64,000 nucleotides of DNA, taken from contig CAWDVE010000019.1 of NCBI GenBank assembly GCA_963805625.1, forward strand, positions 416,001 through 480,000, in the 5' to 3' direction. The stretch comes from an uncultured Candidatus Rokubacteria bacterium. Its GTDB lineage: Bacteria; Methylomirabilota; Methylomirabilia; Rokubacteriales; DASRDR01. Below, piece after piece: positions 42,204-51,598 of this stretch. The position numbers were made by a program, and so were the translations under genes. The notes below the pieces were generated by a model. That model saw only the letters and a program-made list of their open reading frames with translations, was not told where the DNA came from and did not search any database. The first letter of the stretch is position 1, and each line of letters opens with the position of its first letter.

Positions 42204-42629
42204 TCACTCGGACTCGGCGGCCACCGCGGCGAGAGAGCGCCGCGGCTCGGCTGTCTGCGTCTGCTCCATCCGCTCCTGACAGGGACGGCATCGCTGGGCG
42301 AAGGGCAGGATCCGGAGGCGGGCGAGGCCGATGAAGCTCCCGCAGTCGCGGCAGAGGCCGTAGCGGCGGTCGCGCAGGAGCTCGAGCGCCGCGTTGACCT
42401 GGATCAGCTCCCGGCTCGCGCGGTCGACGAGGGCGGCCTGCAGCTCGTCGTCAAGGGTGCGGCTGGCCGAGGCGACCTGATCGCTGTCCTCGCCGGCGTG
42501 GCCCTGCCGTTCGCCGAGCCCCCGGCGGATCATGCCCGCCAGGACGAGCTGGCGGGTCCGCAGGAAGCGCCCGATCTCCTGGGCGGTCCGGCGGTCGAGG
42601 GCGTCGTGGCTCTTCGTGGTCGTGCTCAT
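42204..42629 (-). CDS. TraR/DksA C4 zinc-finger protein
   Basis: YGLCRDC...RL...P...C..CQ; N-terminal coiled coil; GAGG RBS. Confidence 0.88.
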   Translation of the reverse strand: MSTTTKSHDALDRRTAQEIGRFLRTRQLVLAGMIRRGLGERQGHAGEDSDQVASASRTLDDELQAALVDRASRELIQVNAALELLRDRRYGLCRDCGSFIGLARLRILPFAQRCRPCQERMEQTQTAEPRRSLAAVAAESE

Positions 42630-42689
42630 CGGCGTCACCTCGGTGCGCGGCGGCATCGTGGACCGCCGCGCGGTCGGGTGACGGAAGGC

Positions 42690-42705
42690 AGCAACGGCCG
42701 TGCCC
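42690..42705 (-). promoter_or_regulatory. Sigma-54 -24/-12 promoter of the DksA-like gene
   Basis: GGGCAC-GGCCG-TTGCT; IHF-like TATCAAGACTTTC just upstream (~42724-42736). Confidence 0.7.
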
Positions 42706-42877
42706 GCGGGCCAGCCCAGGGAAGAAAGTCTTGATACTACTTGCTTTTCTGCACCCGATGAGGGCGCAGAGCGGAACGCGCGGTAGCGGGTGGTCGTGTA
42801 AGCGTTACACGTGCCAGCGTGTAGACGCTGCCTCCAGCGAGCGGCCGATCTCACGGCGCCGCCGTTTCCGGCCCGGG

Positions 42878-44797
42878 TCAGGAGGCGCGTCTCGCGGGCA
42901 TGCAGAGGACGCGGTCCCCCGCCTGACCGGCGCTGATGGCCTGGTACTTCTCCCAGAACGCCTGGTCCACGAGCCGCATCTCCGGCGGGGCGTCCGATGA
43001 TCGGTAGCGGCGGTAGCGTCGCGGGCCGCCATGATAGGCGGAGTACGATGCGCGAGCCGCGTCGGAGAGGCGTTCCCGCGCCTCGCGGATCCCGTAGCGC
43101 CCGAGGAGCTGCCAGAGGATCTCGGTCCCGGCCCCCGCGTTGTAGCCGGCGCTCCAGCGGAGCTTCACGGGGTTGAAGAAGCCGCGCCACACGCGCACGT
43201 TGATTTGCATCATGCCGACGTCGCCGGTGGAGGACTGGATGGGGACGACCCCGCTACGATCGCGGACGAACTGGCGCCAGCAGCTCTCCTGCCAGGCGAC
43301 GGTCTTCACGAGGTCCCGGAAGAGGTGCTCGAAGTGGTCGCCGAGCACCTCCCCGTCGAAGGATCGCTCGGCGGCGAGGGTGAGGAGACGGTCGACGATC
43401 TCCCGGTACGCGGTGAGCTCGGCCGTGGCCGGGACCCACCGATCCAGCCGCTCCGAGAGCTCCCGCCAATCATCGGCTTCGTCCGCGTGCGCCGGGCGGG
43501 GAGTGAGCCAGGACGGGAGCCACGAGCGGGGCGCCGCCGGCTTCCGCCGGATCCGCCGCGGGGGAGCGTCGGGGTCCCTGAACCGGAATAGCTCCTGGAG
43601 CTTCGGGTCCGGCGCGTCGGAGTACTCGAGCGGGTCTCCCGCGTAACCCGGGGCGAGCGTACGGGCCAGCCGGCGAAGGCCGTCGGCCGAGAAGTCGAGG
43701 CCCGCCGACGGCGCCGCCGCTTCGATCGCGGTCAACGCGTCGCCCGCGGCCAGGAACACCACGAACCGGAGGGCGCGGGCGTCGTCGCTGCCCTTGCTCC
43801 CGGCGCGCCGCATGATGGCGCGGAGGCGGTCCCAGAGCCGGAGGAACAGGGGACGGACGGGGTCGACCCCCGCCTCGGGCCCCCGCCCGAGCACGGCCGT
43901 CACTTCGCGCCGGGCCGTGAGGAGCAGGTCCAGCAGCTCGGTCCGCATCTCGGGATCCGCGTCGCCCGCGACGTCCTTGACCAGGAATCCGAGGAAGCCG
44001 TCCCAGCTGTCCAGGAGAGCCTCCCACTGCTGGATCTCCGCGCGGGTCAGGGCCCGCTCGGGGGCGGGCGGGACGGGTGCCGCCGGGGGCAGGTCGAGGG
44101 TGACGCGGAGACGGACGGCGTCCGGCTCGACGGCCAGCTCGCGCGGCCGGAGTGTCTGGAGTGCCGCGGCTAGGCCTCCGGTGGGGGTGCTGAACGATCG
44201 GAGGAGGGTCCGGACCTGCTCGACGGGCGGCCCGAGGTCGAAACTGAAGGTTTCCAGCTCGGCCGCGCTCCAGTCCCGGACGACGGTCCAGAGCCGCGTG
44301 GCCACGGTCGCGGGCTGGCGGGCCGCGTTGTAGAGGCGGAAATCGACGTCCCGGAAGCGGAGCTGCCAGTCATGACCGAGCTCGGGTCGCGCCAGGATCT
44401 CCGCGTGACCGGTCCAGGTGATGGACCCGAAGCACCAGCCGAGCAGAGGAAGCCCGGCGGTCGCCGAGGCGGGCCCGGTGATCCGGAGCCGCTGGTCGGC
44501 GGGCTCGAGGACGGGATCGCGGACGACGAACGTGCCGCAGCCGTCGGGCGTCCGCCAGAGCTCGAGCGCGCCGCCGCTCTCCTCGCCGAGATGCTTCCGC
44601 ACGGCGGCGCGAAGCACCTCGTAGTCGATGGTCAGCGGGAACGTGACCTCGACCGCCGTCGCCTGCGCGGGCGCGACGAGGGCACTCACCAGGGCCGCGA
44701 TCGCGACGATCAGGGGGAGGCGAACCCGCCCGACCCCGGACGGCTCTCGATCCCGCGCGGGAAGTGATGCACGGCCGCCGGTTCTCGGTCGACGCAT
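42878..44797 (-). CDS. Secreted protein with a C-terminal SLT lytic transglycosylase domain
   Basis: AWQESCW, GMMQIN, YNAGAG, AYHGG; signal-like segment ending AQATA; start uncertain. Confidence 0.8.
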   Translation of the reverse strand: MRRPRTGGRASLPARDREPSGVGRVRLPLIVAIAALVSALVAPAQATAVEVTFPLTIDYEVLRAAVRKHLGEESGGALELWRTPDGCGTFVVRDPVLEPADQRLRITGPASATAGLPLLGWCFGSITWTGHAEILARPELGHDWQLRFRDVDFRLYNAARQPATVATRLWTVVRDWSAAELETFSFDLGPPVEQVRTLLRSFSTPTGGLAAALQTLRPRELAVEPDAVRLRVTLDLPPAAPVPPAPERALTRAEIQQWEALLDSWDGFLGFLVKDVAGDADPEMRTELLDLLLTARREVTAVLGRGPEAGVDPVRPLFLRLWDRLRAIMRRAGSKGSDDARALRFVVFLAAGDALTAIEAAAPSAGLDFSADGLRRLARTLAPGYAGDPLEYSDAPDPKLQELFRFRDPDAPPRRIRRKPAAPRSWLPSWLTPRPAHADEADDWRELSERLDRWVPATAELTAYREIVDRLLTLAAERSFDGEVLGDHFEHLFRDLVKTVAWQESCWRQFVRDRSGVVPIQSSTGDVGMMQINVRVWRGFFNPVKLRWSAGYNAGAGTEILWQLLGRYGIREARERLSDAARASYSAYHGGPRRYRRYRSSDAPPEMRLVDQAFWEKYQAISAGQAGDRVLCMPARRAS

Positions 44798-45036
44798 AGC
44801 CGAGTCTGATTCCAGCATACTCGACCTCTACGTCTCTGTCGGCGACCGGGTTTTGCCAGGGTACAGTGGGCCGGCACGGGCGCTCGGTGGCAGCGGCAGG
44901 AGACCGGCGCGGGGACCGGTGCCGGTTCCGTTCGCAGTGGGAGCCGTGAACCGCGTCATGAGCGTGGCACCCCTGATGGGCAGCCGATCCGTCGACGAAT
45001 GGTGCCGCTGCATATGCGAATTCATACACTGGTGCC

Positions 45037-45543
45037 ATGGAAACGGGGCGCCAGGCTCGGGGGCGTATCCTCGGCCGGACGGTGCCATGGCTCGTCCTCT
45101 CGGCTCTCCTTGTGGCGCCGGTTGCCGCGGAGGAGTTCACGGGTCGGGTTGTCGGGGTGACCGATGGGGACACGATCAAAGTCCTCCACGCCCATCGGTC
45201 CGAGACGGTGCGCCTGCTGGGCGTGGACGCGCCCGAGAGGCGTCAGGCCTACGGGGATCGCGCCCGGCGGTTCACGGCCGAGCTCGCGTTCGCCCTCACG
45301 GTCACCGTGCGGGCGAACGGGCGCGACCGGAACGGGCGCCTGCTCGGGGAGGTCGTCCTCCCGGACTGCCGGAGCCTGAACCAGGAGCTCGTGCGCGCCG
45401 GCTACGCCTGGTGGTTCCGGAAGTACTCCCGCGACATCCGGCTGGCCCATCTCGAGGAGGAGGCCCGCCAAGATCGCCGTGGTCTCTGGGCCGACGCTGC
45501 CCCCCAGGCCCCCTGGGAGTACCGGATCAGCGGGCGGCGATAG
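45037..45543 (+). CDS. Thermonuclease (SNase) family nuclease
   Basis: DGDTI, VRLLGVDAPE, DRNGR, LVRAGYAW, GLW. Confidence 0.92.
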   Translation: METGRQARGRILGRTVPWLVLSALLVAPVAAEEFTGRVVGVTDGDTIKVLHAHRSETVRLLGVDAPERRQAYGDRARRFTAELAFALTVTVRANGRDRNGRLLGEVVLPDCRSLNQELVRAGYAWWFRKYSRDIRLAHLEEEARQDRRGLWADAAPQAPWEYRISGRR

Positions 45544-45632: not shown

Positions 45633-46100
45633 TAGTGCCCCGGTTCCAGAGATTCCACGCCCCGCTCTATACTGCGAGGGATAGTCCCCCTTAAGGTCCA
45701 CCGAAAGGGACGGGCGGCGCGGTTCCAATGTCGGATGAGGCGGGCGATCCGCGTGGCACGTGCCTCGTAGGCCGCGTCGCTGGCCCGGGCGATCCTGCCG
45801 CTCGAGAATGTTGAGCCAGACTCGATCTGATTGAGCTACGAGCCATGGAGGAGCAGGAACTCGAGCCGGTCGCGGCCATCCGGAGCGGCAACCCAGGCCC
45901 GCACGTCGGGCGTCGTGTGGATCGAGAGATTGCCTGGGATTATGACCAAGCGGCCACGCGGCCATGTCTCATGCGGTCGGCCGAGCAGCTCCAGGAACTC
46001 GCCGGCCGCGCCGGCGCACCGCGTACCCGAATGCCGCGTCGCTGGCGCAGACACCATCGGACGACAGGTCGGACCGGACCTTGCGGCGAGAGTGGGGATC
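45633..46100 (-). mobile_element. Degenerate IS630-family element (3' transposase remnant and end)
   Basis: Frameshifted IIPGNLSIHTTPDVRAW, (W)LNQIE, NILERQ, PFRWT; end TAGTGCCCCGGTTCCAG beginning with TA. Confidence 0.7.
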
Positions 46101-46312: not shown

Positions 46313-46472
46313 TGGGGCTCCGATGCCCCAGAGGGGTCGCGCCGCCCCAGGGTCAGGCGGCGTCCCTGGGAACTCGCGCCCTGCAAAGATCCGGACCCGT
46401 TGCCCGAATCGATGGTGGCCTGCCTCCGGGATCACGTGGAGGCCCAGGGAACGTCGATTGCACCGCATTGGA
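46313..46472 (+). repeat. Sigma-54 enhancer-promoter module, copy 1
   Basis: Aligns with 47635-47783; GATGCCCCAGAGGGG and GGGAAC-GTCGA-TTGCA (46447-46462). Confidence 0.75.
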
Positions 46473-46595
46473 ATGAACAGACGACCCTCAGGGTTCGAAG
46501 CCCTGGGAACAAGGCGTCTCCCGGTAACCGTGGGGGAGGTCCGGTGAGGCGGCCGGCACGGTGACGTTCGCGACCGCAGAAGGAGGGTCAGTCAA

Positions 46596-47021
46596 GTGAA
46601 CATCGCGAATGTCTTGGCCAGCAAGGGCGGTCGCGTGATCACGATCCGTCCTGACCAGACCGTGAGAGAGGCCCTGGAGCGTTTTGCCGAGCGCAATATC
46701 GGCGCGCTCGTCGTGGTAGACGACGCCCACGGGGCGGTAGGGATGATCACGGAGCGCGGCATCCTCCGTGCGGCGTTGACGAATGAACGTGTTCTCGGCG
46801 CGACCGTCGGCGCGGTGATGTCCAAGGAGGTCGTCATCGGACACCCCAGCGACGATCTGATGTCTGTCGCCCACACCATGACCGAGAAGCGAATCCGTCA
46901 CCTGCCCGTCCTGGACCAGGGGAAGCTGGTCGGGATCGTGTCGCTCGGTGACCTGGTCAGGGCACAGCGGGATCACTACGAGGGGCAGGTCGTGACCCTG
47001 GAGACCCTGCTGTCGGACTGA
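46596..47021 (+). CDS. Stand-alone CBS-pair protein
   Basis: IGALVVVD, GMITER, MTEKRIRHLPV, GIVSLGDL; AAGGAGG RBS. Confidence 0.93.
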   Translation: MNIANVLASKGGRVITIRPDQTVREALERFAERNIGALVVVDDAHGAVGMITERGILRAALTNERVLGATVGAVMSKEVVIGHPSDDLMSVAHTMTEKRIRHLPVLDQGKLVGIVSLGDLVRAQRDHYEGQVVTLETLLSD

Positions 47022-47112
47022 CGATGCGCGCACCGCCCTGCTACGGAACGCAGAGTGAAGGCGGACACTCCAGGAGAGCGCGCCACGCCACGTTCCTCGG
47101 CGTCGGCGCGGG

Positions 47113-47280
47113 CGATGGTTCGGAGAGCGCGAGGATCTGTCGGCGTTCCTAGACCTTCTCGTGCGCCGCCAGATCCAGCCGGTCATCGGAACACGCCTTC
47201 CGCTCACCGTGGCCGGGAGAGCTCACCGAATGCTGGAGGGAGCCGACGTCGCTGGAAAGATCGTGCTCGTGTCGAGCTAG
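47113..47280 (+). pseudogene. C-terminal remnant of an MDR/quinone oxidoreductase
   Basis: REDLSAFLDLLVRRQIQPVIGTRLPLTVAGRAHRMLEGADVAGKIVLVSS*; no start or N-terminus. Confidence 0.7.
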
Positions 47281-47384
47281 CGCGGTAGGGTCTCCTCCGG
47301 GTCGCGCAGGATCGCACAGGCACAGTTGTGACCGGGGTGTCTCCGTGAGCTCGGCGCCCGAAACCGTGCCCCCGCCGCAGGGGT

Positions 47385-47545
47385 AACACGCTGATCCGGA
47401 AGACCGGAAACCGCCCCCTGAGCATGGCGTTCGGAAGCCCCCGGGAACAACTTCGTCGAATTCATCCAGCCGATCGACCAGACGATCCACGATTTCCGCC
47501 TCCGCGCGAGCTACGCGGGCGAGGGCTGGCAGCTTTCAGGGGAGC
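47385..47545 (+). pseudogene. Fragment of an MtrB/PioB-like outer-membrane beta-barrel gene
   Basis: TLIRKTGNRPLSMAFGSP-(+1 C)-GNNFVEFIQPIDQTIHDFRLRASYAGEGWQL; family recognised from memory. Confidence 0.5.
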
Positions 47546-47634
47546 TGCGCGCTGAGGGCTCGGCATGGAGGTAGTCCGGCGTGCTCCGTCGGCTGCCCCC
47601 GTCACGCCATGAGCCGCCGGCGGACCAGAGCCAG

Positions 47635-47783
47635 TGGGACTCCGATGCCCCAGAGGGGCTGCGCTGTCCCAAGGTCAGACCGCATCGCTGAGAACCCGTG
47701 TGTTGCAAGGCTTCGGAACCATTGTACGAATCAACGGCGGCCTACTTCGGGAGGCCCGGGGAACGTGGATTGCACTGCACTGG
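47635..47783 (+). repeat. Sigma-54 enhancer-promoter module, copy 2
   Basis: GATGCCCCAGAGGGGC and GGGAAC-GTGGA-TTGCA (47759-47774). Confidence 0.75.
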
Positions 47784-47866
47784 GCCGAGCGTGGTACGGT
47801 TCGAGCCCGCGCCTGCGCCGGTCGGACCGCCCCGTAGCCAATCGGGGACACAGAGAGGGAGCCGCC

Positions 47867-48757
47867 GTGCAAACACGCCTCCAGCTGGCCCGCGTTCTGG
47901 TCCCCCTGGACGGCTCGACCTTGGCCGAGGCCATCCTGCCGGCCGTCGAGCGGCTGGCACGCGATCACGAGGCCGACGTGATCCTGCTCGAGGTCCTGGA
48001 GGGCCAGGGGACACGTGAGGCCGAGCTCGATGCGGAGCGGCAGGCCGGGGGCTACCTCCAACGGATGGTCGACTCCCTCCGGCGGCGCGGCCTCAAGCGG
48101 GTCTGCACGCGCGTCTGGTACGGCGATGCCGACCAGGCCATCGCTAACGCGGCCACGCGGGAGCGGGCCGATCTCGTCGCGATGTCGACCCACGGCCGGA
48201 GCGGCCTCGACTGGCTCCGCTTCGGGAGCGTCGCCGAGGGCGTGGTCCGCCGGGCACCCGTGCCGGTGCTGCTCGTCCGCGGCATCGCCGCCTGGGACCG
48301 GGGCGGGATCAACCGCATCTTGGTTCCGCTCGACCGGTCGGAGGCCTCCGAGGCGGTGCTCCCGCTCGTCTCATGCCTGGCCGGCCCTTTCGACTTCGAG
48401 ATCCAACTCCTGCACGTCGTCGAGGTGGCCCTACCCCTCTCGGGTTGGGAGGCCGCGGGGAAGGTTGTCCATGACGCGGAAGCCGAGGCCTACCTGGCCG
48501 AGATGGCCGCACTTCTCGAGGCCCGCGGGCTTCGCGTGGGTATGACAGTACGGGCGGGGCTTCCCGCCGAGGTCATCCCGGCGGTTGCTGCCGAGACGAA
48601 GAGTGGTCTGGTCGCGATGTCGACCCACGGCCGCTCGGGCCTGGGCCGGCTATTCCTTGGAAGCGTGGCCGAGCGCGTGCTGAGATCAGTGTCGGTGCCG
48701 GTGCTCCTGTGGAAGCCGCCAGCCGGCACCCGCGAGGCCGGACCGGCCCGCCCATGA
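47867..48757 (+). CDS. Tandem-domain universal stress protein
   Basis: Two copies of LVPLD.S...AMSTHGRSGL....GSVAE.V....PVLL. Confidence 0.94.
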   Translation: MQTRLQLARVLVPLDGSTLAEAILPAVERLARDHEADVILLEVLEGQGTREAELDAERQAGGYLQRMVDSLRRRGLKRVCTRVWYGDADQAIANAATRERADLVAMSTHGRSGLDWLRFGSVAEGVVRRAPVPVLLVRGIAAWDRGGINRILVPLDRSEASEAVLPLVSCLAGPFDFEIQLLHVVEVALPLSGWEAAGKVVHDAEAEAYLAEMAALLEARGLRVGMTVRAGLPAEVIPAVAAETKSGLVAMSTHGRSGLGRLFLGSVAERVLRSVSVPVLLWKPPAGTREAGPARP

Positions 48758-48779
48758 GCTCGAGATGGGAGGAAGCCCG

Positions 48780-50075
48780 ATGACCCGGAACAACCTGAGT
48801 GTGACCGACAACCGGACCGGCAAGACCTACGAGATCCCGATCGAGCACGGCGCGATCCGGGCAGTCGACCTCCGCCAGGTGAGGACGGGCCCCGACGACG
48901 TCGGCCTGCTCTCGTACGACCCCGCATTCATGAACACGGCGTCCTGCCGCAGCACAATCACGTACATCGACGGCGACCGCGGGATCCTCGAGTACCGGGG
49001 TTACCCGATCGAGCAGCTCGCCGAGCAGTCGTCGTACCTCGAGGTCGCGTACCTCCTGGTCCACGGCCAGCTGCCCACCGGAAGCCAGCTTACCGAGTGG
49101 CGCTGGGAGATCACGCACCACACGTGGATCCACGAGAACCTGAAGAAGTTCCTGGACACGTTCCACCACGACGCTCACCCGATGGCGATGCTCGTCTCCG
49201 CGGTCGCGGCGCTGTCGACGTTCTACCCCGAGGCGAAGAACGGCGCTGACGCCGAGGTCCGCCATCTGCAGGTCGTCCGCCTCATCGCCAAGATGCCGAC
49301 CCTCGCCGCGTTTGCCTATCGCCACGGGCTCGGCATGCCGTACGCGTACCCGGACAACGACCTCTCCTACGCCGGCAACTTCCTCAACATGCTCTTCAAG
49401 GCGACCGAGGTGAAGTACCAGCCGAACCCAGCCGTGGAGCGCGCCCTCGACGTGCTCTTCATCCTCCACGCGGACCACGAGCAGAACTGCTCCACGAACG
49501 CCGTGCGGGCCGTCGGCTCGTCCCAGGCCGACCCCTACTGCTCGCTCACCGCCGGCGTCGCCGCCCTCTACGGACCCCTCCACGGCGGCGCCAACGAGGC
49601 GGTCATCCGGATGCTCCAGGGCATCGGCTCCGTCCAGCAGGTGCCGGATTTCATCCGCCGCGTCAAGGGCGGGGAGGGCCGGCTCATGGGATTCGGGCAC
49701 CGCGTCTACAAGAACTACGATCCCCGCGCGAAGATCATCAAGCGGCTGGCGGAGGGGGTCTTTGCCGTTACCAAGCCCAACCCGCTGCTGTCCATCGCGC
49801 TCGAGCTCGAGCGCATCGCGCTCCAGGACGACTACTTCGTCCAGCGCAAGCTCTATCCAAACGTCGATTTCTACTCGGGTCTCATCTACCAGGCCCTCGG
49901 GTTTCCGGTCGACATGTTCCCGGTTCTCTTCGCGATCCCCCGGACCTCAGGCTGGCTCGCTCAGTGGCTGGAGATGACGGCCGATGCCGAGCAGAAGATC
50001 GCCCGGCCCCGGCAGCTCTACCTGGGCTCGCCGCGGAGGGAGTACGTTCCGGTCGACCGGCGCGAGGGGAGCTGA
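48780..50075 (+). CDS. gltA: Citrate synthase
   Basis: YRGYPIEQL, DHEQNCST, GPLHGGAN, GFGHRVYKNYDPR, YPNVDFYSG. Confidence 0.97.
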   Translation: MTRNNLSVTDNRTGKTYEIPIEHGAIRAVDLRQVRTGPDDVGLLSYDPAFMNTASCRSTITYIDGDRGILEYRGYPIEQLAEQSSYLEVAYLLVHGQLPTGSQLTEWRWEITHHTWIHENLKKFLDTFHHDAHPMAMLVSAVAALSTFYPEAKNGADAEVRHLQVVRLIAKMPTLAAFAYRHGLGMPYAYPDNDLSYAGNFLNMLFKATEVKYQPNPAVERALDVLFILHADHEQNCSTNAVRAVGSSQADPYCSLTAGVAALYGPLHGGANEAVIRMLQGIGSVQQVPDFIRRVKGGEGRLMGFGHRVYKNYDPRAKIIKRLAEGVFAVTKPNPLLSIALELERIALQDDYFVQRKLYPNVDFYSGLIYQALGFPVDMFPVLFAIPRTSGWLAQWLEMTADAEQKIARPRQLYLGSPRREYVPVDRREGS

Positions 50076-50152
50076 TCCAGTGTGCCAGCTGCCCGCACAA
50101 GAGCTCGACGAGGCCGAGTTCCTCGCGAGCCGGAAAGCCTAGGGAGGTTCCG

Positions 50153-51598
50153 ATGCCCGCCAGACCGTCTGTGAGCTACAGCCTGACCGTTCGCGTCGAG
50201 ATCCGGAACCGCCCCGGGATGCTCGGCAGGGTCACCTCGGCCATCAGCCGGGCCGGTGGGGATATCGGGGCCATTGACCTGATCCAGCCCGGCGGAAAGG
50301 TCCGAACCCGGGACATCACCTTCAACGCGCGTGACGATCGTCACGGCCAGGGGATCGTCGCGGGCCTCGGCAGGATCCGCGGCGTCCGCGTCGTCCACGT
50401 GTCCGACCGGACCTTCCTCATGCACCTCGGCGGCAAGATCGAGGTGCGCGGCAAGGTGCCGGTGAAGACGCGCGACGATCTCTCGATGGCCTACACCCCC
50501 GGCGTCGCCAGGATCTGCCTGGCGATCCGCGATGACCCCGAGAAGGCGTACACGCTGACGATCAAGCAAAACTCGGTTGCGGTCGTCACCGACGGCACGG
50601 CGGTTCTGGGGCTGGGGGACATCGGCCCCAAAGCGGCGATGCCGGTGATGGAGGGCAAGGCCCTTCTCTTCAAGGCCTTCGCCGAGGTGGACGCGTTCCC
50701 GCTCTGCCTCGACACCAAGGACCCGGACGAGATCGTGCGGATCGTCCGCGCGGTGGCGCCGGGGTTCGGGGGGATCAACCTCGAGGACATCGCCGCCCCC
50801 CGCTGCTTCGAGATCGAGGAGCGTCTCCGGAAGGAGCTCGACATCCCGGTCTTTCACGACGACCAGCACGGGACGGCGGTAGTCGTGCTCGCCGCGCTCC
50901 TGAACGCCCTCAAGGTCGTGAAGAAGAAGATGAGCGACGTCCGCGTGGTCTTCGCGGGCGCCGGGGCGTCGGGCATTGCCACCGCTAGGCTCTTGATGGC
51001 GGTCGGATGCCGGCAGATCGTCGGCTGCGATCGAGAGGGGGCGCTCTACCGGGGTCGGGTCGAGCACATGAACCCCGTCAAGGTGTGGTTCGCCGAGCAC
51101 ACGAACCCCCGGCGTCTCCGCGGTAGCCTGGCCGACGCGCTCCGGGGCGCGGACGTCTTCATCGGTCTCTCGGGGCCCGGTGTCGCCACCCGGCGAGACA
51201 TCCGTCGGATGGCACGGGATCCCATCGTGTTCGCCATGGCGAACCCCACGCCGGAAGTCATGCCCGAAGAAGTCCGGGGCATCGTCCGGGTCATGGCGAC
51301 CGGACGATCCGACTATCCGAATCAGATCAACAACGTGCTCTGCTTTCCGGGGTTCTTCCGGGGGCTCCTAGACGTGCGCGCCCGTGGAGTCAACGAGGAG
51401 ATGAAGATCGCCGCCGCCCGGGCGATCGCCTCGATCGTCCGGCCGAGCGAGATCGAGGAGGACTACGTCATCCCTTCCGTGTTCGATCGACGGGTTGTGG
51501 AGGCTGTCGCCAACGGTGTGGCGCAGGCGGCCGGCCGGACCGGCGTCGCGCGCCGCCTCCGCCGCCGCGCGGTTCCGGCCGTCACGCCCGCGAGATGA
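50153..51598 (+). CDS. NAD(P)-dependent malic enzyme with N-terminal ACT domain
   Basis: NRPGMLG (ACT); YTPGV, VMEGK, INLEDI, HDDQHGT, TGRSDYPNQINN. Confidence 0.95.
   Translation: MPARPSVSYSLTVRVEIRNRPGMLGRVTSAISRAGGDIGAIDLIQPGGKVRTRDITFNARDDRHGQGIVAGLGRIRGVRVVHVSDRTFLMHLGGKIEVRGKVPVKTRDDLSMAYTPGVARICLAIRDDPEKAYTLTIKQNSVAVVTDGTAVLGLGDIGPKAAMPVMEGKALLFKAFAEVDAFPLCLDTKDPDEIVRIVRAVAPGFGGINLEDIAAPRCFEIEERLRKELDIPVFHDDQHGTAVVVLAALLNALKVVKKKMSDVRVVFAGAGASGIATARLLMAVGCRQIVGCDREGALYRGRVEHMNPVKVWFAEHTNPRRLRGSLADALRGADVFIGLSGPGVATRRDIRRMARDPIVFAMANPTPEVMPEEVRGIVRVMATGRSDYPNQINNVLCFPGFFRGLLDVRARGVNEEMKIAAARAIASIVRPSEIEEDYVIPSVFDRRVVEAVANGVAQAAGRTGVARRLRRRAVPAVTPAR

Follow-up and report, generated by a model that had tools for sequence, protein, structure and literature searches.

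Two homologous non-coding segments of about 155 bp were analysed in a 64,000-nucleotide stretch of contig CAWDVE010000019.1 from an uncultured Candidatus Rokubacteria bacterium; this whole stretch is called the window below. The two segments are best explained as paralogous sigma-54 promoters, likely bound by an NtrC-type activator and predicted to fire at low oxygen or in a reduced redox state, a reading to which we assign a probability of roughly 0.7. An initial annotation, made from the sequence alone, had proposed a duplicated sigma-54 enhancer-promoter module at this position. The feature is real, its operator has to be corrected, and the regulon is much larger than the window shows.

The segments 46313-46471 (copy 1) and 47635-47783 (copy 2) align over 159 columns with 73% identity (E 5e-21) and a single 10-nt gap. 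As the initial annotation had described, each carries GGGAAC-N5-TTGCA (at 46447 and 47759), and the motif GATGCCCCAGAGGGG (at 46322 and 47644) precedes it by 125 bp in copy 1 and 115 bp in copy 2, a difference of 10 bp. Pfam agrees with the gene content that had been read there: copy 1 stands before a CBS-pair gene, and copy 2 before a tandem universal stress protein (USP) gene, gltA and an ACT-domain malic enzyme gene, with a gap of 22 bp between USP and gltA. The DNA between the copies is indeed decayed, containing relics of a zinc-binding dehydrogenase gene and of an mtrB/pioB gene. Neither blastn nor nhmmer found a third copy in the whole 7.27-Mb, 69%-GC genome, giving two copies in total. 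Contigs from public sequencing runs span parts of this layout (run X1, perhaps the source sample, 46857-47683; run X3, 47613-47851). In one contig from run X3, which belongs to another study, a copy-1-like promoter end is joined straight to the USP leader (window 46471-47830), which suggests a strain with a different spacer before USP or without the CBS block. Contigs from RNA runs were also found, one covering CBS positions 46590-46850 and another starting 14 nt downstream of a start predicted in the island described below, but these were not used as evidence because contigs cannot reveal transcription starts or levels.

The conserved operator, as predicted from sequence, consists of two 18-bp dyads TGGGGC-N6-GCCCCA in tandem, the second 19 bp after the first, and a sigma-54 -24/-12 element follows downstream. 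An alignment of the homologous copies (from this genome and its relatives) has three conserved blocks, these being TGGG[AG]C-N6-[GA]CCCCA, a weaker dyad 19 bp downstream, and GGAACG-N4-TTGCA. Among six homologous copies, one of which had been found by the promoter motif itself, pairwise identity is 91% and 94% in the half-sites of the first dyad, 74% and 83% in those of the second, and 100% in the GGAACG and TTGCA elements, compared with 68% in the middle block and 49-52% in the linkers. The -24/-12 element (GG-N10-GC) is found in both window copies and is kept across the six homologues, its -24 part being non-canonical. In copy 1, the primary operator, a predicted upstream activating sequence, is a perfect dyad at 46313-46330, supported by half-site conservation and recovered by a position weight matrix (PWM) trained elsewhere; the secondary operator follows 19 bp downstream at 46332-46349 (PWM score 10.2), and the sigma-54 element at 46447-46462 (plus strand, GGAACG at -24), supported by its conservation and by the presence of rpoN, predicts a start near 46473. 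In copy 2, dyad and PWM scans place the primary operator, with one mismatch, at 47635-47652, the PWM scan places the secondary at 47654-47671, and the motif position and alignment place the sigma-54 element at 47759-47774 (plus strand), with a predicted start near 47785. The initial annotation had instead taken GATGCCCCAGAGGGG (GCCCC-AGA-GGGG) as the conserved activator site. Motif positions and the homologue alignment show that this is the junction of the two tandem dyads (46322-46336 on the plus strand in copy 1), and its right arm is altered in two of five homologous copies.

Two other origins for the segments were considered and rejected. As a coding remnant, they have no credible common open frame in six-frame translations and no Pfam match. 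As a promoter of the extracytoplasmic function (ECF) sigma factor type, they have no -10 element that could be seen by eye 17 nt after GGAAC.

The same design recurs through the genome. In what follows, the genome under study is G000 and C10, C13, C14, C17 and C19 are its contigs, while other G numbers denote relatives and L numbers extracted loci. There are nine perfect TGGGGC-N6-GCCCCA sites in the genome, all intergenic although about 79% of the genome is coding, and five of them fall within an island at C19:305-412 kb, immediately upstream of the window. The reversed dyad pattern has no match in the genome, and dyads with other spacer lengths were absent from C19:305-412 kb. An operator PWM was built from 11 island sites and a sigma-54 PWM from nine island promoters together with the known consensus, in each case excluding the window copies; genes were called with our own codon-based caller. 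A scan for tandem sites plus promoter gave 28 matches in the genome, 27 of them intergenic: 15 in the island (11 overlapping training sites and four new), the two window copies, and 11 elsewhere. Although kept out of the training, the two segments of the window take ranks 4 and 12, and locally shuffled DNA gave 0, 0 and 1 matches per 2.2 Mb. Conversely, an upstream dyad scoring at least 7.8 accompanies 16 of the 18 strong intergenic sigma-54 sites in the island. The primary and secondary operators are 19-20 bp apart at 31 of the 35 matches listed. The junction motif of the initial annotation behaves differently: it has 27 matches in the genome, 16 of them intergenic and only two within the island, and a relaxed form is found at just 7 of 26 regulon promoters, so it was rejected as the operator. 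About 20 promoters in this genome share the tandem design, mostly in the island, which is about 100 kb long and contains genes for USP, CBS, chaperones, nitrate/nitrite-reductase-like enzymes, a heme-copper oxidase and central metabolism.

The content of the island was assessed by Pfam for 75 of its 96 called genes. It includes eight USP and eight CBS genes, BON, PfkB, PCMT-erythromycin esterase, HPF, GroEL and two P-type ATPases. Genes for respiration are also present, namely NrfA/NrfH-type cytochromes, a COX1/COX2 heme-copper oxidase, a formate/nitrite transporter, and a molybdopterin oxidoreductase operon with EB_dh and NarJ, whose best match is a type II DMSO reductase, below the cut-off. 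Pyruvate dehydrogenase subunits are encoded there too, as are a regulator of NtrC type (C19:330489) and a PAS-GAF kinase (C19:336936). The idea of a sigma-54 stress regulon governed by a bacterial enhancer-binding protein (bEBP) thus survives in a fuller form: many promoters of sigma-54 type make up the regulon, its centre is the island of USP, CBS and respiration genes, and that island encodes both an NtrC-type activator and a heme-PAS-like kinase. Three further loci in this genome are worth recording. At C13:318849-330536 (L026), a perfect dyad is followed 114 bp downstream by a near-consensus sigma-54 element and then by genes for an EB_dh cytochrome, a long multiheme cytochrome, and Rieske-like and cytochrome b-like proteins; this cluster is probably a regulon member that fell below the tandem threshold. 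At C14:127000-138553 (L018), a tandem-site promoter leads into an operon with pyruvate:ferredoxin oxidoreductase-like, CBS, radical SAM and PAS-LuxR genes, divergent from an apparent second heme-copper oxidase operon. Within the island, C19:313433-314374 encodes a receiver that follows an N-terminal domain in one fused protein. To the eye, that domain, which has ExxH-like motifs, resembles ferritin or rubrerythrin; it gave no NCBIfam match, and Pfam found the receiver only.

The spacing between operator and promoter is clustered. Pooling G000 and its relatives (56 matches), 21 spacings fall at 88-91 bp and 14 at 98-102 bp, with just one at 92-97 bp. In G000 alone (26 matches, two at 188 bp having been dropped), the spacing of first site and promoter shows a periodicity, with a Rayleigh R of 0.58 at 10.3 bp (p about 1e-4); the p value is 0.002 without the 88-91 group, and a permutation of the proximal site gave p = 0.013-0.015. 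Seven homologous copies of the element have spacings of 135, 125, 145, 135, 137, 120 and 135 bp, of which five share the 10-bp phase; the pattern used to find the last copy limited its spacing range.

The genome contains rpoN, as the sigma-54 reading of the initial annotation had supposed, and 35 of its 48 Sigma54_activat matches span nearly the whole domain. The candidate activator is encoded at C19:330489-331853, about 130 kb upstream of the window copies, and has a REC domain, an AAA+ domain with GAFTGA, and an HTH_8 domain. A bidirectional site at C19:328288-328324 faces the receiver-AAA_33-activator genes, and another operator site faces a receiver gene adjoining the kinase. The activator passes no named NCBIfam cut-off among its best 25 matches, and a homologue search with its C-terminus returned generic protein names only. 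Its closest named orthologues include Rokubacteria/Methylomirabilota records with 78-79% identity. A contig labelled Gemmatimonadota (L032) encodes a 91%-identical regulator with the gene order of the island, which would reflect either misbinning or recent transfer.

The operator tends to accompany this regulator in other genomes. The C-terminal 74 residues of the activator match in 110 of 200 genomes of the class, usually once. The 110 genomes have a mean of 2.15 perfect dyads, compared with 0.69 in the other 90 (related genomes not being independent), whereas a control pattern gave means of 0.50 and 0.49. Three or more dyads are found in 40 of the 110 genomes with the activator and in 4 of the 90 without. 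The full architecture was found in three of six held-out loci around close orthologues, compared with none of 74 loci around distant bEBPs (1.23 Mb, of which 0.40 Mb at GC of at least 0.66). A further 20 loci chosen around orthologues gave 30 matches in 12 loci, 26 of them intergenic, and the matches in relatives most often precede USP, CBS or receiver genes. There were no matches to the architecture in 20 Myxococcota protoglobin loci. A strict combined pattern gave no match in five genomes, and was judged too strict because the PWM finds matches in two of them. The promoter variant of the window itself is present in 3 of 15 genomes of the genus and in one metagenome contig. In one relative (G095, L148:11053) the architecture precedes a candidate HemA gene; its N-terminus presumably resembles glutamyl-tRNA reductase HemA, which we take to echo the heme-synthesis targets of the NmpR regulator.

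The signal is suggested by the kinase at C19:336936-338528, near the activator, which is cytoplasmic with the arrangement PAS-GAF-HisKA-HATPase. All 14 matches of its PAS domain in the PDB are to FixL, DosP or 10JX. 10JX is described as the PAS domain of FG214, a redox-regulated heme b protein (bioRxiv 10.64898/2026.03.15.711900). His58, His61 and Met74 of the kinase align with His156, His159 and Met172 of FG214, and His58 also with the FixL histidine; His175 of FG214 is not retained. The NCBIfam score for FixL is 138, against a cut-off of 850. In at least 28 of 107 genomes the activator has a heme-PAS-like gene within 20 kb, and in 20 of those within 4.5 kb; this count is a lower bound because the assemblies are fragmented and 45 PAS matches are unlisted. 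Judging from sequence, oxygen or redox would be the likeliest input in this genome.

A mechanism can be proposed along these lines. By homology, the PAS-GAF kinase would bind heme via the conserved His58, His61 and Met74, and, from homology and linkage, would phosphorylate the activator. Activator dimers on the two sites would then oligomerise and loop to the sigma-54 holoenzyme, as bEBPs in general do, and such looping would favour spacings that differ by whole helical turns, a phasing that is seen statistically above. One activator would in this way switch on stress and respiration genes as a low-oxygen survival programme.

Several observations weigh against this reading. There were no matches around the 78-79% identical orthologues in G011 and G005, nor in three loci of a low-GC family, and G014 has two copies of the element, yet no activator orthologue in its 70%-complete assembly. 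Related dyads and sigma-54 elements occur at a copper-efflux-type locus (C10:205151 and 222726) beside a different NtrC-type regulator (C10:225467), and some of the 28 matches may therefore belong to paralogues. The window -24 element scores 10.1, compared with 14-19 at most island promoters. In the 16 promoters examined, the stretch from the sites to the promoter contains no match to the IHF consensus, despite two IHF/HU-like genes in the genome, and an IHF site was rejected as part of the design. The phasing in relatives depends on one peak, with p 0.10 at 10.5 bp once the 88-91 group is removed, and the G014 spacings of 120 and 137 bp are off-phase. What had been said of helical phase thus holds as phased spacing in this genome, but the 10-bp rule is not absolute. 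Mean dyad number is 1.55 in genomes with the activator only and 1.16 in those with only a PAS-LuxR regulator (discussed below), and co-occurrence fails to separate the two regulators. Finally, a PilS-like kinase with six transmembrane helices (6TM) is found near the activator, instead of a heme-PAS kinase, in eight examined orthologue loci, so that the signal may differ or be integrated.

This last point leads to the strongest of the alternatives, which keeps the architecture and the activator as described but has them respond to an envelope or membrane cue through the 6TM kinase, or to general stress. Targets such as GroEL, an Hsp20-like protein (labelled by inspection) and RNA/DNA-repair genes would suit it. 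However, the G000 island has no 6TM membrane kinase, with only a weak match on C17, and elsewhere the linkage of heme-PAS genes to the activator recurs as counted above. The NrfAH, type II DMSO-family reductase, heme-copper oxidase and MtrAB targets also fit the low-oxygen gene sets described for lxa (PMC3721108) and NmpR (PMC11841059). We consider this alternative unlikely.

A second alternative, somewhat less likely again, is that the tandem sites are operators of the PAS-LuxR protein, which has a GerE-type helix-turn-helix (HTH), in the manner of DosR, with the sigma-54 element served by another activator. The PAS-LuxR gene is found in 87 of 200 genomes of the class and, in G011 and G014, runs divergently from the copy-2 homologue; genomes with it are also richer in dyads, with means of 2.53 where both regulators are present and 1.16 for LuxR only; and DosR itself binds tandem 18-bp G-rich boxes at USP/CBS-rich promoters (PMC3177182). 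Against this, the sites here precede sigma-54 elements by 60-140 bp, at phased spacings, and sigma-54 promoters require a bEBP (PMC4641369). The Dev boxes, in the sections cited, lie near -42 and -63 and differ from the operator here in half-site register. G009 and G163 lack PAS-LuxR among the matches listed, yet have four and two architecture matches beside the activator. PAS-LuxR is itself downstream of such promoters in G000 (C14:137927-138553, in the C14:132256 operon) and G019, and so looks like a second-tier target. Its PAS domain has a conserved C-x13-C-x3-C pattern (L014:8811-9470; L015:6011-6640), possibly that of a metal or Fe-S sensor, and a 107-bp partial duplicate of its HTH coding sequence (L015:8029-8135) abuts the copy-1 homologue in G014.

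It is very improbable that the copies are non-functional remains of a regulon promoter whose locus is decaying, or that the repeat is a structured RNA or a miniature inverted-repeat transposable element (MITE): the locus is rich in relics (insertion sequence, dehydrogenase, mtrB) and the -24 element is non-canonical, but the operator half-sites and promoter elements are far more conserved than the linkers, the genes downstream of the copies are intact and 77-94% identical to those of G011, and there are only two copies, both pointing into genes, rather than many dispersed ones, with no Rfam match at E up to 5 and an unfavourable RNAalifold covariation term (+3.6, with many broken pairs).

Returning to the sigma-54 promoters with their NtrC-type activator, the history of the locus can be followed in relatives. 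Strong DNA homologues of the element are found in 2 of 60 relatives, with a diverged extra copy in G011 and one in a metagenome contig. In G014, the copy-1 homologue precedes genes for CBS, a DmsE/MtrA decaheme cytochrome and an MtrB/PioB porin, while downstream of the copy-2 homologue come genes for an EB_dh cytochrome, a multiheme cytochrome, a DsrO-like FeS protein and DsrP/NrfD, and then USP-gltA-malic enzyme. G011 has the G014 gene set with internal duplications. The window retains just a 168-bp mtrB relic, indicating that MtrAB has been lost here, and copy 2 now stands directly before USP-gltA-malic enzyme, the direction of this change being one that we infer. From the respiratory clusters behind the homologues in G011 and G014, the locus is mainly respiratory or electron-transfer DNA that has been partly deleted here. 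This qualifies the earlier suggestion that the module controls entry into the tricarboxylic acid cycle, which nevertheless gains from G019, where a regulon promoter stands directly before USP-gltA, independently.

The remaining features of the window are as follows. The CBS-pair gene (46596-47021, plus strand; Pfam and comparison) encodes 141 residues and is intact, with 93% identity to its G011 orthologue. Between it and copy 2, on the plus strand, are the zinc-binding dehydrogenase relic, a C-terminus (47152-47280; PF13602, E 3e-6), and the frameshifted mtrB/pioB porin relic (47386-47553), which has 90% nucleotide identity to G011 mtrB, 89% over 35 residues by tblastn, and a PF11854 match of E 5e-4; the G011 MtrB protein passes TIGR03509. 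Downstream of copy 2, also on the plus strand, are the tandem-domain USP (47867-48757; two PF00582 domains), the type I citrate synthase gltA (48780-50075), and the ACT-domain malic enzyme (50153-51598), assigned by Pfam; genome searches found two distant gltA paralogues (36-38%) and one 68% malic enzyme paralogue elsewhere. Upstream of copy 1, weak evidence (DDE_3, E 0.02) points to a probable IS630-like transposase relic at 45640-46060 (minus strand), for which no second copy was found in the genome. Further upstream, 42204-45543 contains a DksA/TraR zinc-finger gene, with a sigma-54-like element at 42705 (minus strand) but no dyad, and genes for an SLT transglycosylase and a staphylococcal-type nuclease, these last two being syntenic in G011.

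On a wider scale, we consider the odds even for the following picture. A master switch for low oxygen would be present in about half of the genomes of Methylomirabilia (Rokubacteria and kin), with a heme-PAS kinase as sensor and, as output, a sigma-54 activator that has an operator of its own. In Rokubacteria the switch would run a dormancy island on the scale of DosR or lxa; some strains would add extracellular electron transfer through MtrAB, a DsrOP-like membrane complex and citrate synthase/malic enzyme, and PAS-LuxR would act as a second tier. If true, this would amount to one more architecture for surviving hypoxia, evolved independently in a soil lineage that is abundant but uncultured. 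It would give a concrete regulator, operator and target list for the response of an uncultured soil phylum to falling oxygen, and would tie the switch to nitrate/nitrite respiration, a heme-copper oxidase and extracellular electron transfer. From its operator, the regulon can be read in any Rokubacteria genome or metatranscriptome, and it can be tested in E. coli without culturing the host.

The initial annotation had supposed that such a regulon was undescribed. This does not hold, since NmpRSTU of Myxococcus xanthus (PMC11841059) is a known low-oxygen regulon that depends on sigma-54 and has CBS and USP genes among its targets, although the present system is different from it. No description of the present system was found in the literature on Rokubacteria/Methylomirabilis regulation, a search confined largely to openly accessible papers; the portions covered of PMC12316311 do not mention the phylum under the terms searched, and those of a paper on the Desulfovibrio sigma-54 regulome contain no matching regulon. 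In NmpRSTU, an NtrC-like activator acts on sigma-54 promoters with paired dyads, with autoregulation, a heme-dependent kinase and induction by hypoxia, and genes for a CBS protein, USP, P-type ATPase and heme-copper oxidase are among those it controls (PMC11841059). The present system would work in a like manner: the activator type, sigma-54 promoters, paired dyads and these four kinds of target are also found here, and autoregulation and a heme-dependent kinase are predicted. However, the NmpR sites are GCGCA-N5-TGCGC, 14-15 bp apart, whereas those here are TGGGGC-N6-GCCCCA, 1-2 bp apart; the NmpU sensor is a protoglobin, whereas the island kinase is heme-PAS-GAF (no search for a protoglobin elsewhere in the genome was made); and NmpR has about seven bound promoters, compared with about 20 predicted here and concentrated in an island. 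In a quick tree, 22 activators of the present type and 14 NmpR-like proteins, the latter picked by synteny with protoglobin kinases, form separate clades with 100% support and have different HTH domains; one of the loci, L202, has NmpR boxes 29 bp apart. As far as sequence can tell, the present system would thus stand apart from NmpRSTU in regulator clade, operator and sensor. Some activators encoded near protoglobin kinases nevertheless form a small clade whose recognition helix is like that of the candidate activator, and one locus of this kind, in Myxococcota, has TGGGGC-N5-type dyads (L199:5375 and 13298), one of them before a sigma-54 element.

Targets that we take to be shared with DosR are USP, CBS, small heat-shock protein, PfkB and cation-ATPase. 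DosR (DevR), the NarL-type regulator of the DosRST system in Mycobacterium tuberculosis, binds G-rich boxes of 18 bp that stand in tandem, 21 bp apart (PMC3177182), and the resemblance extends to a primary and a weaker secondary box about two helical turns apart. The differences are that DosR boxes lie near the start (-42.5 and -63.5), in contrast to the distal sites here, that the linked regulator here is an AAA+ bEBP, and that the essential C is the seventh base of the Dev half-site but the sixth here.

The lxa locus of Burkholderia cenocepacia likewise gathers low-oxygen genes into one large island, in which a single intergenic motif recurs at many of the promoters, and contains several USPs, alpha-crystallin, phospholipid-binding proteins, a ribokinase and a cation ATPase (PMC3721108). 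Its motif is TGA-N6-TCA, Anr/Fnr-like with CRP-family proteins as candidates, and no sigma-54 activator appears in the sections cited, whereas sigma-54 is used here. A comparison with the lxa-type motif found that the PWM consensus here is TGGGGC-N6-GCCCCA, although single TGAGGC half-sites occur.

In the FixLJ-FixK cascade, the heme-PAS kinase FixL acts on the output regulator FixJ, with a second tier below. The present system resembles it in having a cytoplasmic heme-PAS-type histidine kinase with the proximal His kept, and a possible second-tier regulator in PAS-LuxR, but its output is a sigma-54 bEBP rather than FixJ, and the His/Met pattern of its PAS domain is that of FG214 and DosP. If true, the present reading would also suggest that DosR, Anr/Fnr, NmpR and, here, the candidate NtrC-type activator have each come independently to control the same set of USP/CBS dormancy genes.

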